Positions 1,748-34,200 of a DNA stretch of 64,000 nt are shown here, in pieces. The DNA lies in NCBI GenBank assembly GCA_903884815.1, contig CAISGE010000058.1, forward strand, positions 6,583-70,582, read 5' to 3'. The notes beneath the pieces were generated by a model. The model saw only the letters and a program-made list of their open reading frames with translations. It was not told the origin of the DNA and made no database searches. The position numbers and the translations under genes were made by a program. The DNA is from Candidatus Omnitrophota bacterium (GTDB lineage: Bacteria; Omnitrophota; Omnitrophia; Omnitrophales; Aquincolibacteriaceae). Numbering within the stretch: position 1 is the stretch's first letter; each line of letters begins with the position of its first letter.

Positions 1748-1776
1748 TTGAAATAAACAATTAAATCAAGCATATT
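1748..1776 (+). promoter_or_regulatory. candidate sigma70-like promoter for giant gene 1 (TTGAAA-17bp-CATATT; TATAGT 6 bp further)
   Basis: AT-rich 260-bp intergenic region. TTGAAA at 1748-1753, 17-bp spacer, CATATT at 1771-1776. The hexamers are weak. Confidence 0.2.
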
Positions 1777-1805
1777 TATAGTAGAAATCGAGGGTTCCAA
1801 AGAAT

Positions 1806-1885
1806 GGAGGCCTATGAAGTCGGGGGCCTCAATAGGGAGGTATGAAAGTTAATTTAGAAGGCTTATGAAGTCACAAAAACTATGA
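1806..1885 (+). promoter_or_regulatory. leader with three tandem SD-ATG-AAG mini-ORFs (12, 8 and 6 codons); last stop overlaps the giant start (CTATGATG)
   Basis: The motif GGAGG-N3-ATGAAGT occurs three times, at 1806-1820, 1836-1849 (GGGAGGTATGAAAGT) and 1857-1871. uORF1 is 1814..1852 (MKSGASIGRYES). uORF2 is 1842..1868 (MKVNLEGL), and its TGA overlaps the uORF3 ATG. uORF3 is 1865..1885 (MKSQKL), and its TGA at 1883-1885 overlaps the ATGATG of the giant ORF at 1882-1887. The giant start itself has no SD. Confidence 0.35.
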
Positions 1886-4800
1886 TGAAAAAAAGTATCA
1901 CCAAAATTCAATCGCATGGAGCGGTGACAAAAGCGATCGCGCTAGCGGTGGCGTTCGTCTTTACGTGTACGAGCGTGACGTGGGCGGATCCCGCGGCCGC
2001 GTCGAAGACGTCTCTTGTTGCGCCCGCTCCCGTCGGCGACTTGGCGCTTGATCTCGGGAAGGTTTCTTTGCCGGCAGAGATGGGAAAGATCGTCGAGACC
2101 TATCGCGGCACGGGAGACAAAACCGTCGTGCTCGTTCAGGACGCGCACTCGATCCCCGACGCGCAGCGCAGCATTCGTTCCGTTATCGAATTCTTTCAGA
2201 AGAGCTACGGTGTATCGACTGTTGGACTCGAAGGCGCGGCGAGTGAACTCGACGCTCAGATCTTCAAAAGTTTTCCGGACAAGGAACGTCTCGAAAGAAC
2301 TTTTGATCAGTACGCGGCGCGTGGTGAGTTGACCGGAGGATCGGCGGCCGCGATCTTTAGCAAGGCCCCGGCAGAGTATCACGGGATCGAAGACTGGAAG
2401 CTTTACGAGCAAGGGATTGCCCTTTATCTCGCCGCGACAAAAGCCGGGGAGGCGGCCGGGCAACAGCTCGCGGAAGAGGAGATGAAACTTGAGGGCGAAA
2501 AGGCGACGGTTTATTCCAAAGAACTTCTCGAAGTAGACCGCGCCTTGAGGGATTTTGAGGCAAACAAGATTGATCTTGCCGCGCTTCTCGTCAGCCTGAA
2601 CCGTTATCTGGCACCGACCGCCGGTTCCGAGCTTGCGGTTCTCACGGCAGAGGTCGATCGCGAGGGCGTTTCGGACATCCCCGTCGAGACCGAGATCAAG
2701 GAAATCGCGAACAAAGCGGAAGCGTTTCTGAAAGCGGATCCTTCGACGGCAGGCGACTTCAAAACTCTCAACGGAAAAGTCCAAGAGTTCCGGACTGCTC
2801 AGATCACGCCGCAGGCCTTTGCACTCTATCTCAAGGAAATCGTCAAGCGTCATGGCATCAAGGTTAAAGTCTCGGCCAAGCTTGCTCGCCTTGTCCAAGA
2901 CCAGAAGCTCCTCCGCGACATCGAAGGCACGAAGCTGTTTGGTGACCTGAAACGGTACGAGGATCAAGTTAAAGCATCTCTGATGCGACCCACGGACACA
3001 CCGGGTGTGGACAGGGTTGAAGCGATGCGTGAACTTGATCGCCGGAGCAGAGGGCTGGATCTGCTGAAACGTCTTGCGAAGTTGGAACTCAGTTTTGAGG
3101 ATTGGACGATTGTAAAAAGGTCAACGGTCAACGGTCAACGGTCAACGAACACTCCCGGTGTGGAATATCGGAGTGGCAACGGCAACACACCGGGAGTGGA
3201 TAGGGTTGAACAACTGTCGATCGATCCCATTCTGCTCAGCAGGCTTGAAGAGAACATCCAGTTCTACCGCGTGGCCGAACAGCGCGACGCCGCCTTCTTC
3301 AAAAATCTCTCGTCTCTGATGCAGAAGGATTTTCGCCGTACGCCTTACGCCTTACGCCAGACGCCGCGATCAGCTTTGCTGATTGCGGGCGGCTTCCACA
3401 CCGGCGGCATGACGCGCATTTTCAAGGAGCAGGGGATCTCTTATCTCCTGATCCAGCCCAAGATCGCCCAAATGCCCACCGAGCCCCTTTACCGCGAGCA
3501 CATGCAGGGCAAAGTTTCCTGGAGCAAATATTTCGAAGTCCGTGATGGCCAAGTTAATCTGTATGACGCGTTTGTCCGCGGGGCGAGAGACCAGCTGTTA
3601 GGGACCGTTGATCTCAAGAATCCTCTTTCCGCCGTACTCCCTACTCCGTACTCCGTACGCAAAGATTGGCGCGACCAGATCCTCCGCGACCTCGCGGCCG
3701 AGGGACGGATCACGGAAGCTTCGTCTTACACCCGCTTTATCGATGAGTTGTCGTCGTCCGCCGTACACCGTACTCCGTACGCCGAAGAGTGGCTCGCGAA
3801 CATTCGCAAGTTCGGCGAAGGGCTCAAACAGCTGAAATTGGGTGGCACCCTCACCGTCGCCAACATCCAACAGCTTGTCCGTTCTATCACAATTCCCGCG
3901 ATGGCCATTGGGGCGGAACTGAGTCCTGATTCGACGTCCCTACCACTGGTTCGTCCAGAGTCAGATTCCCGGAATTTGGCGCAATCGATTTCCGGAGATT
4001 GGAAGGATGAACCGGCCAAACCCGAATCCCGCGCGCCTGATGCCATCGTCCACAATGAAGGCGAGCGACGTGAATTGCGGGAAAAAAGAAAGCGAGAGAT
4101 CCTCGATTGTGATCTCATGAAAAATCTTCAGAGCCGTTATCCGCGTGTCATGTCCTTTGTGGCGGAATTCCTGGAGCCGGACCATATTCTTAAAGAAAGG
4201 ATCATGAACGAGATCGATGGTCTTGAGGATGCGGCGGTTCTGGCGGAAGTGAATAACGGCCTTAACCAGTTCCCAGAGACGAGAGGCGTGAACGAGTATG
4301 GGCTATACAATCCGGCGACGGTGGAAACCCTCTTTCTGACCTTAACCGCGGGAATTGAAGATATACCGCAAGTACTTGCATCGATCAGCGCGGTGGCAAG
4401 CAGTATGTCGATCGAGCGCATGAAACAGTCGAAGGATGAATCTTATGTAATAAAACGGATCGAACACTTTTATCTATTTTTTCACGCATTGGAGATTCTA
4501 TCCAAAACTCAGGGGAAAGCGCTTATCGATCGCTTTGAGAGAGCGCTCGCTGAAGCCCGCGCCGAATCCCGCACGCCAAAAGGGAAGGCGGTTGTGTCTG
4601 AGACGCCGTCGGACAAGGTCAGGGTCCCGGACGAGCCGTGGAAGAATTTTCCAAATTTCAGCAAGAACCTTCAGGCCGCGCTCCGGCAGATCTTTGAAGA
4701 AATAAATAACGCTTATGGGAACAAGATCTTGCTGGCCTCGATAACACCTGAGTGCTCTATCATGAAGGGAACCGCGATGCCCTATTCCGACGCGGACGGA

Positions 4801-30921: not shown

Positions 30922-30953
30922 TTATCATTAATTTCTTGATTGGAAATTAGCGT

Positions 30954-30997
30954 CGCCCTTGTCGGACATTAATGGAATGAAATAAACGACAAGGGCG
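30954..30997 (+). terminator. 11-bp stem / 22-nt loop hairpin 33 bp after the stop of giant gene 1
   Basis: CGCCCTTGTCG (30954-30964) pairs with CGACAAGGGCG (30987-30997). The large loop is atypical for an intrinsic terminator. Confidence 0.25.
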
Positions 30998-31248: not shown

Positions 31249-34200
31249 ATGACGCAGTCCGAACTGTTTTCACAATTCTGGAAGCGCTCTGTCTCTCTGG
31301 GCGTTGCTCTGTCTTTTCTCGTGACAAGTGTGATCACGAATCCCGGTGTGGGCTATGGACAAACCGCGGGTATCGACTTTGCGAGAATCTTTTCAGCGCC
31401 AGTTGACCGGATGGCGGGACTTGCCGGATTGCCGGCGGAGATCGGCTCGGTTGTTGAAACATCAATTCGACAGACCCTAGACCACAGACCACAGACCACA
31501 GAAAAAAATGCAAGCCCTGCGGACCGTGGACCGCGGACTGAGGACTCGCTTGTCATTCTCCTCCAGGACGCTCACGCGAATCCAACCGCTCAGGAGAATA
31601 TTCGGCAGATCCTCCGCTATCTTTCCGGAAAATACAAAAATATGACCGTCGCTGTTGAAGGTTCCTCCGGCCAACTGCGCCCCGATTATTTCGATGTCAT
31701 CAAAAACCATCCCAAGGCCGGCGAGGCGATCCTTCGCGACCTCAGCGCCAAAGGCGAGATCACCGGAGCTGAGCTTTTTGCCTTTGAAGAGGCAAAAAAG
31801 TACGCAGTACGGGGTACGGCGTACGGCGAAAACGAGTCAGGTGGAAGGCTTACGGAGTATGGCGTGAAAGATTTAAACCCCGTACGCGGTACGCCTTCCG
31901 CCGTACGCGTCATGGGCGTTGAAAACACCGCGCTCTACCGCGAAGACTTGGAATTATTCCGTTCGGTTCAGAAAGATTTTCCTTCGATCACGAAGGCCCT
32001 CTTGCCCGTCCACGCGGCGCTGGATCAGGAAGCCTCCCGTGTTCTTTCACCCGAGCTGCGGGATTTCCTGAAGGAACGCGAGCGCCGGAAGAATGGCAAA
32101 TTCACAGCCTCTCAAACCGCCGGGGATCCTAATATCGCGGCCTATTCCAACTATCTCGCGAAACAGTCGAACAAGGTCCTGGCGATTGATCTTTCCGATG
32201 CCTTTGAGCAGTTGCGCTATCCGAATCTCATGCGCCTTCTCGCTCTCCAGAAGGATAAAGAAATCACGGATCCGGAGGCCGTCACCGCCGCGTGGGAAAA
32301 ATTCATGATCGATCTCGGCAATAAGATCTCCCAGGAAAAGGAATTTCTTTCGGCGCTGCGCTACTTTGCGGTCACGAACGGGCTTGTTCAGTCAAAGCGT
32401 CCGGCGGGGGAACTTCCGTTCCTCTATTCCAAAGAACTTCTTCCAAGAAAACTGCTTGAGTATCTCTATCACCTGAAGACCTCGGCCGGAATCCGGATGG
32501 AGGACTATCCGGTGGTTTTGAAGTCCTTCCGTTCGCTGATCCTGCGCTGCGAGATCGATGCCGCGGGCCTTTTTGAGGAAATGGATTCGCTTGAAGGCCT
32601 GATCACAGCCAAGCTCGCGGTAAGCGACGCGGAGAAAGCGCTCGTCAAACGTTTCGCGTTCCTTGAAAGACTTGAGAAAGCACTCCGACTCGAACTCGAT
32701 CGCAAAGAATACCGCGCTCTTGTGGCGGAGAAGGCATCCCTCCAGGAATTCACCAAGGCTTCGGACTTGCTTGCTGCGTCGCTTGACCGCGCGCTGAAAT
32801 TTTATGAACTTGCCGAGAAGCGCGACAGCGTGTTGCTCGAAAATGCCCTTGAGCTCGAAGCGGAAGGCGTACGTCGTACGGCGGATGACGGAAAATCAGG
32901 CTTGGCGCCTTCCGCCCTACACCTTCCGCTTTCCGAGGTGATTGTTCTTATCACCGGCGGCTTTCACACGGACGGGATCAAGGCGATCCTGGAGGAAAAG
33001 GGGATCCAGCACGCGGTCGTGATGCCGCGGATCACGTCGACCGATCACGGGGAGGCGTATCTTAAGACCATGAACGGCTCTAATTCCGACCTCTCAGCTT
33101 ATTTTAATGTCGCGAACCCGTTCCGGACAAAGCAGCAGGCCATTATTTTTAAAGGCATCATCGAAAACGCCGCTCCGTCTCTTGTTCAAGACGAAAATCT
33201 TTCCGTCTCGCAGGCCGCGAACCTTGTCCAGGACGCACTTACGAATCACCCGCTGCTCGCGAACGCCCTTCGCGCTGAATTTGCTCCCGTCATCCTGAGC
33301 GGAGCGAAGGATCTCAGCCGAGATTCTTCGGCTGGCGAGCCTCAGAATGACGAGTTGATCCATACGCTCATCATCACACCCGTTCAATTCCGTCCAACGC
33401 TGTCCGGCAATTCCGCCATTCCCGCGGAGCTCCTTTTCAGTCCCGATTATGAATCGACGGTGAGCACGGCGCCTTTTTCCGCCGCTGAAGTTACGATGAT
33501 GCCAGCGGGGAATATTGTCCGGCCGGTGGCGCTGTCATCCAAAAAAGTTTCGTTGAAATCGACCCGCGCCGAGACGCGGTCTTTTAAAAAAGCCGATCGC
33601 TCTGAGAAGCGGGATGAGCCATGGTTCCGGGCCAAGCGGCCTCTCAGAGACGGTGCCATTGCCGCGGCGATGATCGGGGCTTCCATCCTTTTGGTCCTCG
33701 CGCATCCCGGCTGGTATTTTGTCGTGCGCAACGGTCTGGGGCAGCTCGTCGGCCACCTGGCTTCGAGCCTTTTGGATAAAAAGTTCAACTTGCAGCGCTA
33801 CTTCCGGGCGGCCGCGTTCGGCGCGGGGTGGGCCCTGATCATTCCTCTTTACGCTTTCTGGATCCCCACGCTTCGGATCGCGCCGGTGGCGGGAGCGCAG
33901 CTGGATCTTTTCGGTTTCGCGCAGATTGGTGTCCTGGCCGGTTTCACGATCCTTGGAGAGATCTTCCTTCCGGCCCGGGATGGTGAGGGGACTTTGGGGC
34001 GGTTCTGGAGGACACTGAAATTCCAGACGAAGAACATCATTTACGCGGAAGGGGGATTTTTCATCAAGCAGATCACCTATTGGACGGCGCTCTCGGGGCT
34101 CTACTACGCTTCGGTCATTTCATTTCCCGCATTTTCACAGCTTATTGTGATCGCCGCCATGATCTTTGCGCTCCCGCAAGCCCTTGAATCCGTCCTTACA

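Follow-up and report, generated by a model that had tools for sequence, protein, structure and literature searches.

A chain of ATGA-overlapping mini-ORFs leads up to the Shine–Dalgarno-less start of a 29-kb giant gene in a Candidatus Omnitrophota bacterium

We analyzed a 64,000-nt stretch of DNA from a Candidatus Omnitrophota bacterium (assembly GCA_903884815.1, contig CAISGE010000058.1, positions 6,583–70,582 of the forward strand), referred to below as the window. It contains two giant open reading frames (ORFs), at 1882–30921 (9,679 amino acids (aa)) and at 31249–52464 (7,071 aa). The start codon of the first has no Shine–Dalgarno (SD) motif and is preceded by four short upstream ORFs (uORFs), all with SD-like motifs, three of which are joined to one another and to the giant ORF by an unbroken series of three ATGA stop/start overlaps (uORF0 > uORF2 > uORF3 > giant ORF) that ends exactly on the giant start. 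This chained pattern of mini-ORFs is real and statistically unusual, and it is tighter than was described in an earlier reading of the same DNA that used the letters and their ORFs (the sequence-only reading). Our tentative interpretation, to which we give somewhat less than an even chance, is that the leader may be translated and would relay ribosomes serially, by termination–reinitiation, to the SD-less giant start. The features that make up the stack are as follows, with duplex energies and spacers defined below.

1790–1794, forward strand: SD-like GAGGG, 9 nt 5′ of the uORF0 ATG; −6.4 kcal/mol, spacer 9 nt
1804–1845, forward strand: uORF0, 13 codons, MEAYEVGGLNREV; its TGA (1843–1845) lies over the uORF2 ATG (1842–1844) as ATGA
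1806–1810, forward strand: SD-like GGAGG, within uORF0 and 3 nt 5′ of the uORF1 ATG; −9.3 kcal/mol, spacer 2 nt
1814–1852, forward strand: uORF1, 12 codons, MKSGASIGRYES; TAA at 1850–1852; a side branch outside the ATGA chain
1835–1840, forward strand: SD-like GGGAGG, 1 nt 5′ of the uORF2 ATG; −11.4 kcal/mol, spacer 0 nt
1842–1868, forward strand: uORF2, 8 codons, MKVNLEGL; its TGA (1866–1868) lies over the uORF3 ATG (1865–1867) as ATGA
1857–1861, forward strand: weak SD-like GAAGG, 3 nt 5′ of the uORF3 ATG and 20 nt 5′ of the giant start; −3.8 kcal/mol, spacer 2 nt
1865–1885, forward strand: uORF3, 6 codons, MKSQKL; its TGA (1883–1885) lies over the giant ATG at 1882 (ATGA) and over a second ATG at 1885 (TGATG)
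1871–1900, forward strand: A-rich start region, TCACAAAAACTATGATGAAAAAAAGTATCA, without an SD; largely unpaired by prediction
1882–30921, forward strand: giant ORF 1, 9,679 aa, ~29 kb; signal-peptide-like N-terminus

Three of these mini-ORFs (uORF1, uORF2 and uORF3, of 12, 8 and 6 codons) had been proposed in the sequence-only reading and were borne out at the positions given above, as were two of the ATGA overlaps and the lack of an SD at the giant start; uORF0 had not been described. Because the stop codon of uORF0 overlaps the start codon of uORF2, the chain to the giant start is unbroken, with junctions at 1842–1845, 1865–1868 and 1882–1885. The co-directional stop/start overlap that defines termination–reinitiation coupling, ATGA or TGATG, is present in the leader, and at the giant start both of these canonical geometries are on offer: since the giant gene begins with ATGATG (1882–1887), the uORF3 stop also forms TGATG with the second ATG (1883–1887). 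For the earlier proposal of termination–reinitiation, the required geometry was therefore found in a stronger form than had been noted, namely as a three-step ATGA chain into an SD-less ATGATG. The accompanying statement that the stops and starts of the mini-ORFs overlap held for uORF2/uORF3 and for uORF3/giant ORF, but not for uORF1/uORF2, which share 11 nt in different frames and have no stop-to-start joint. Along the stack, the distances from one start codon to the next, ending with the giant ATG, are 10, 28, 23 and 17 nt. The frame of uORF0 is that of the giant ORF; read-through or frameshifting from the former into the latter was ruled out because two stops, at 1843 and 1855, intervene.

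The giant start to which the chain leads, ATG 1882, is the earliest start codon downstream of an in-frame stop and is the one used by the gene calls in five independent public assemblies. The signal-peptide-like N-terminus that begins there also begins all homologs of giant ORF 1, which were found, using the first 500 residues of the protein, in Candidatus Omnitrophota metagenome-assembled genomes at 26–52% identity.

We calculated SD strength as the energy of the duplex with a generic anti-SD, counting the spacer to the last paired base, and used 17 gene-sized ORF starts in the window for comparison. Most of the latter were at −5.5 to −11.1 kcal/mol (13 of 17 at −3.6 kcal/mol or lower), with spacers of 3–13 nt. 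All four upstream ATGs of the stack are preceded by an SD-like motif, with energies ranging from −3.8 to −11.4 kcal/mol, whereas the giant start reaches only −0.9 kcal/mol and has no usable spacer, in line with what the sequence-only reading had claimed. Only uORF0 has an ordinary SD geometry for de novo initiation; judged by their position, the SDs of uORF1–3 look better suited to retaining a ribosome that has loaded onto the message before. For comparison, the leader preceding giant ORF 2 (31249) contains 10 upstream ATGs, none of them with an SD, and no coupling chain.

To estimate how often such an arrangement arises by chance, we used dinucleotide shuffles. For 1785–1881, a chain of at least three ATGA junctions was present in 0 of 20,000 shuffles and, with the giant start held fixed, in 19 of 300,000; for the longer interval 1618–1881, three chains were obtained in 20,000 shuffles. 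Even among those shuffles that had four upstream ATGs, the chain was seen in just 3 of 1,756 (0.17%). In real sequence, a chain was seen at one of 1,009 ATGA sites, the one described here, in 225 kb comprising the window and homologous loci on both strands. Four SD-preceded ATGs within 97 nt had a probability of about 2 × 10⁻⁴ against the shuffles.

The leader sits in a 264-nt AT-rich spacer (GC content 0.32–0.38) between the gene for a DNA-binding protein and giant ORF 1. Further features of the spacer and its upstream flank are:

1354–1617: VF530-family DNA-binding protein gene (Pfam PF09905, E = 1e-28), immediately upstream of the leader
1748–1782, forward strand: two overlapping sigma-70-like matches, TTGAAA-17-CATATT (1748–1776) and TAAACA-17-TATAGT (1754–1782)
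1825–1830, forward strand: GGCCTC, an anti-SD-like (CCUC-like) element that can pair with GAGGCC (1807–1812) or GAGGT (1837–1841)

In a consensus scan, every promoter-like site was located 5′ of the stack, a point in favor of the relay. Besides the two matches listed, a third was found at 1703–1731 (3 sites versus 0.8 expected), and the predicted −10 hexamers end at 1731, 1776 and 1782. From these positions we infer a transcription start near 1783–1790, upstream of all four mini-ORFs. A leaderless transcript from a promoter inside the stack was rejected, as there is no acceptable −35/−10 match downstream of 1782.

In the relay that we tentatively favor, a ribosome would bind at GAGGG, 9 nt ahead of ATG 1804, and translate the 13 codons of uORF0. 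It would then terminate at TGA 1843–1845 and restart on ATG 1842, where the adjacent GGGAGG may help to retain it. Translation of the 8-codon uORF2 would be followed by termination at 1866–1868 and a restart at ATG 1865, and translation of the 6-codon uORF3 by termination at 1883–1885 and a restart at the giant ATG, either 1882 or 1885. Throughout, uORF1 (1814–1852) would act as a competing side branch that drains ribosomes. As each hand-over would be less than fully efficient, initiation on the 29-kb message would be low and would depend on the relay. A more specific version, which we consider unlikely, is that the leader is a dedicated relay whose 13-, 8- and 6-codon mini-ORFs are chained by ATGA so as to carry a ribosome from a single well-spaced SD to the SD-less start and to set or gate low initiation on the 29-kb ORF, which encodes one of the largest bacterial proteins; as part of this unlikely version, each relay mini-ORF would shift the frame by −1, returning it to the original frame at the giant ORF.

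Single steps of this kind are known from other bacteria. In Sinorhizobium meliloti, SD-preceded uORFs with an ATGA overlap raise expression of the main ORF by coupling, as validated by start-codon mutation, which abolishes the effect (Dietz et al. 2026, bioRxiv 10.64898/2026.05.12.723736), and ribosome delivery by a short uORF has been proposed as a role of coupling (PMC12548453). Our leader resembles the S. meliloti cases in having an SD and an ATG in the 5′ leader, a short uORF, and a stop that lies over the main start as ATGA. The S. meliloti leaders have one uORF each, tested by reporters and ribosome profiling (Ribo-seq), whereas the present one combines three chained uORFs and a side branch with an SD-less main start and unusually short SD spacings. 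Coupled pairs of overlapping genes are likewise co-directional and share a 4-nt ATGA or a 1-nt TGATG overlap (Huber et al. 2019, PMC6728339; PMC12548453). Those pairs, however, consist of normal protein genes, often for subunits of one complex, whereas the ORFs here have 6–13 codons and no plausible product. A start without a usable SD that would rely on a ribosome terminating just upstream is also a feature of the gene V-coupled system, the difference being that the upstream ORF there is a real gene (gene V) and that there is a single coupling step. At best, by comparison with these systems, the leader would be a multi-step version of the known ATGA-coupled uORF hand-over. No chained uORF relay of more than one step was found described in the literature searched, and the giant-gene papers covered by our search say nothing on the leaders of these genes in terms of Shine–Dalgarno sequences, ribosome binding, promoters, leaders or start codons.

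Short SD-preceded ORFs in the 5′ leader are furthermore typical of leader-peptide attenuators and arrest peptides (trpL/hisL; ermCL, tnaC and toiL in PMC12121999). Unlike these, the leader studied here lacks a regulatory codon run, a recognizable arrest motif, a terminator/antiterminator and a sequestered main SD. Multiple uORFs in a single leader are known from mgtCBR, which has two. The sequence-only reading had also offered an attenuation version of its proposal, which was not supported: with neither a terminator nor runs of regulatory codons, attenuation and arrest-peptide mechanisms both fail in their defining features. For trpL-type attenuation, the uORF peptides contain no regulatory codon run, and no intrinsic terminator or terminator-like hairpin lies between the uORFs and the giant start (1800–1881), the terminator-like sites being at 1642–1654, 1939–1954 and 1999–2011. 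For an arrest leader of the ermCL/SecM/TnaC type, the main gene has no SD to sequester, and its start region is mostly unpaired in the predicted ensemble (mean unpaired probability of 0.63 for 1867–1896). The predicted fold of the leader (1785–1920) is also no more stable than that of shuffled sequences (z = −0.47; equaled or bettered by 61 of 200 shuffles).

Several observations weigh against the relay. The SD spacings of uORF1–3 (2, 0 and 2 nt) are shorter than that of every compared start (minimum 3 nt), and a transcription start near 1789 would put the SD of uORF0 (SD0) at the extreme 5′ end of the RNA. Within the coding DNA of the window, clusters of 3–4 SD-like motifs with an ATG per 80 nt arise by composition as well. 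Every chance test was chosen post hoc, when the pattern had already been seen, and since many windows were scanned, a pattern whose chance per gene is ∼6 × 10⁻⁵ is bound to be met occasionally. In addition, the A-rich and mostly unpaired start region could support initiation without an SD or coupling. The remaining points come from related loci. Searches of genome, metagenome and viral collections returned distant homologs only (26–41% identity), to which a protein search added L006 (52%) and others, and we compared the leaders of 12 homologous loci (L001–L004, L006–L008 and L010–L014; 26–52% protein identity). A stack of SD-preceded mini-ORFs was found in none of the 12. Seven of them have a recognizable SD, and of the five SD-less ones (L004, L006, L011, L012 and L014) none has a coupled SD-bearing uORF, so the relay is no general requirement of the giant-gene family. 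A single ATGA-coupled uORF without an SD was seen in L011, and two SD-preceded uORFs that end 17 and 31 nt short of the start in L002. In the closest homolog, L006, the 130 nt before the start contain no out-of-frame ATG, and a MAFFT alignment of its leader with ours gave no credible similarity; a search of viral contigs for an exact 23-mer of the leader gave no match. Six contigs from other assemblies or samples (L005 and L015–L019) are base-identical across the leader, which makes polymorphism uninformative and leaves the pattern seen in one strain only, with no sign of conservation. That the stack is not conserved counts against its having a necessary function.

Two further observations were made on these loci. 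The exact VF530 protein is recorded on 32 contigs, and the five that we fetched from other samples (L015–L019) match the window at 100% identity over 2,664 bp, which suggests a widespread clonal population, assembled for example in ERZ27313066, ERZ27313089 and ERZ18624736. Contigs with VF530 genes of 83% and 75% identity are recorded as well (ERZ1426822, 8,991 bp; ERZ1426847; cluster P0021), and in the relative whose VF530 gene is 83% identical, the layout of the neighboring genes includes a spacer of ∼266 nt. In L007 (gene at 1023–1247, giant homolog from 1237) and L013 (861–1511 and 1501), the giant homolog begins within the last 11 nt of a gene whose product has an HTH_17 DNA-binding domain. 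Judging from this overlap, these two giant homologs would be coupled to a real upstream regulator gene, not to mini-ORFs.

The repeated motif of the leader proved to be different from its first description. GGAGG-N3-ATGAAGT (GGAGGNNNATGAAGT) had been reported to occur three times, but we found only one exact copy (1806–1820) and one copy with a single mismatch (GAAGG, 1857–1871). The middle site, GGGAGG-T-ATGAAAGT (1835–1849), can be fitted only by allowing indels; its spacer is 1 nt instead of 3 nt long, and it carries an additional A. The actual repeat is a non-palindromic 14-mer, AGGCYTATGAAGTC, in two copies:

1808–1821, forward strand: direct repeat AGGCYTATGAAGTC, copy 1
1859–1872, forward strand: direct repeat AGGCYTATGAAGTC, copy 2, 51 nt after copy 1

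Shuffling produced such a 14-mer repeat in 3 to 18 of 1,000 cases, and 11 of the 14 positions are already accounted for by an SD, an ATG and a Lys codon. A search for the repeat elsewhere yielded no extra copy in the 64-kb window, and in the fetched loci it was present only in contigs identical to the window.

The explanation that survives best beside the relay is that the stack is incidental, which we consider possible but on the unlikely side. A short AGGCYTATGAAGTC duplication in a purine-rich leader would have produced the SD-like motifs and ATGs, the chain would be a coincidence, and the giant ORF would start independently of an SD at its A-rich, unstructured start region. Indeed, the start contexts are not independent, because two of the four are copies of one 14-mer, and the mostly unpaired start region, the clusters of SD-like motifs with ATGs elsewhere in the window, the five homologs that lack both an SD and a coupled SD-bearing uORF, the absence of nearby out-of-frame ATGs in L006, and strains without the variation that could show purifying selection are all compatible with it. 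What coincidence accounts for poorly is the chain itself, given its rarity both in shuffles, even those with four upstream ATGs, and at real ATGA sites, as well as the presence of an SD-like motif at four of four upstream ATGs versus 0 of 10 in the leader of the neighboring giant gene.

We regard it as quite unlikely that the stack works as a throttle, with ribosomes bound upstream, especially at ATG 1865 (17 nt before the giant ATG), occluding the main start or draining into dead-end mini-ORFs so that a costly protein is kept low. The strong SD motifs of uORF1 and uORF2 would suit such a role, and the starts at 1804/1814 and at 1865/1882 are each within one ribosome footprint; occlusion of a main ribosome-binding site by a close upstream one has been proposed from S. 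meliloti reporter data (10.64898/2026.05.12.723736). At the main start, however, there is no ribosome-binding site that could be occluded, and a weak start alone already means low expression. The short SD spacings moreover disfavor efficient de novo binding at uORF1–3, and the stack is not conserved in the homologs.

An operator at the DNA level had been put forward as the alternative in the sequence-only reading, and we consider it improbable. Here, the two AGGCYTATGAAGTC copies would bind a regulator, for example the VF530-family protein encoded just upstream (1354–1617), and their 51-bp spacing, about five helical turns, would place them on the same face of the helix. The low frequency of the 14-mer repeat in shuffles speaks for this explanation, as do further short direct repeats in the AT-rich spacer (a tandem 15-mer, TGCTCCAGTAATTTC / TGCTCCATAAATCTA, at 1649–1678, and TCAATAAATAGCTATG / ACAATACATAGCAATC at 1686–1721). 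Yet there are two copies and not three, they are not palindromic, they lie downstream of all predicted promoters, and no further copy is found in the 64 kb or the homologous loci; most of the repeat is also explained by SD, ATG and Lys codon. A spacing of 51 bp is atypical of direct-repeat binders. Least probable of all, to the point of being remote, is an RNA switch in which the CCUC-like element at 1825–1830 would pair alternately with the SD of uORF1 (SD1) or uORF2 (SD2), a factor or a uORF ribosome deciding which site is open: alternative pairings of 5–6 bp are available, the element is part of an inverted repeat with a mean unpaired probability of 0.14, and the predicted ensemble has SD0, SD1 and SD2 paired for the most part (with accessibility profiles that do not decide the matter), but the stability of the fold does not exceed that of shuffles, neither a terminator nor a hairpin covering the main start is present, and an Rfam search of 1550–2000 at permissive E-values gave chance-level matches only (E = 3.1–4.2, 9–15 bits versus gathering scores of 40–382).

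Some additional sequence elements were noted around the leader and in the giant genes. Directly after the VF530 stop codon, a hairpin without a clear T-run (CCCCTTCAACC / GGTTGAAAGGG, 1618–1644) may be a terminator or RNA-stability element that divides the VF530 gene from the leader of the giant gene. Two copies of the motif TAGCAATCGAG / TAGAAATCGAG lie in the spacer 5′ of the stack (1714–1724 and 1782–1792), and a version of it, TAGCAATCGAT, is found upstream of the closest homolog L006 (∼2897–2907; 52% identity), although the neighboring genes differ; this type of motif may be a promoter or regulator site common to these giant genes. Some 30 nt past the stop codon of giant ORF 1, a long inverted repeat read by eye (CGCCCTTGTCG ... 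CGACAAGGGCG, ∼30950–30995) probably acts as a terminator, which would suggest separate transcription units for the two giant genes. In the giant proteins themselves, the pentapeptide [RK][SNA]E[TMAVSG]R was found 17 times in protein 1 (0.5 expected from residue shuffles, with a maximum of 3 in 500) and six times in protein 2 (0.4 expected). Its forms are mostly RSETR, RAETR, RNEMR, RSEMR and RSESR, and the copies are ∼250–1,200 aa apart. The pentapeptide may mark linkers or processing sites that recur along the chain, in which case the giants would be polyprotein-like.

The leader bears on the question of how bacteria start, pace and protect the translation of messages of 20–100 kb. If the relay does not hold, the data would mean that starts in this giant-gene family are often SD-less and that chance stacks of SD and ATG are easily over-read. 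If it does, the stack would constitute the first regulatory element linked with a giant gene of the Omnitrophota. Serial termination–reinitiation via non-coding mini-ORFs would then extend the single-step uORF coupling that has recently been validated in rhizobia.

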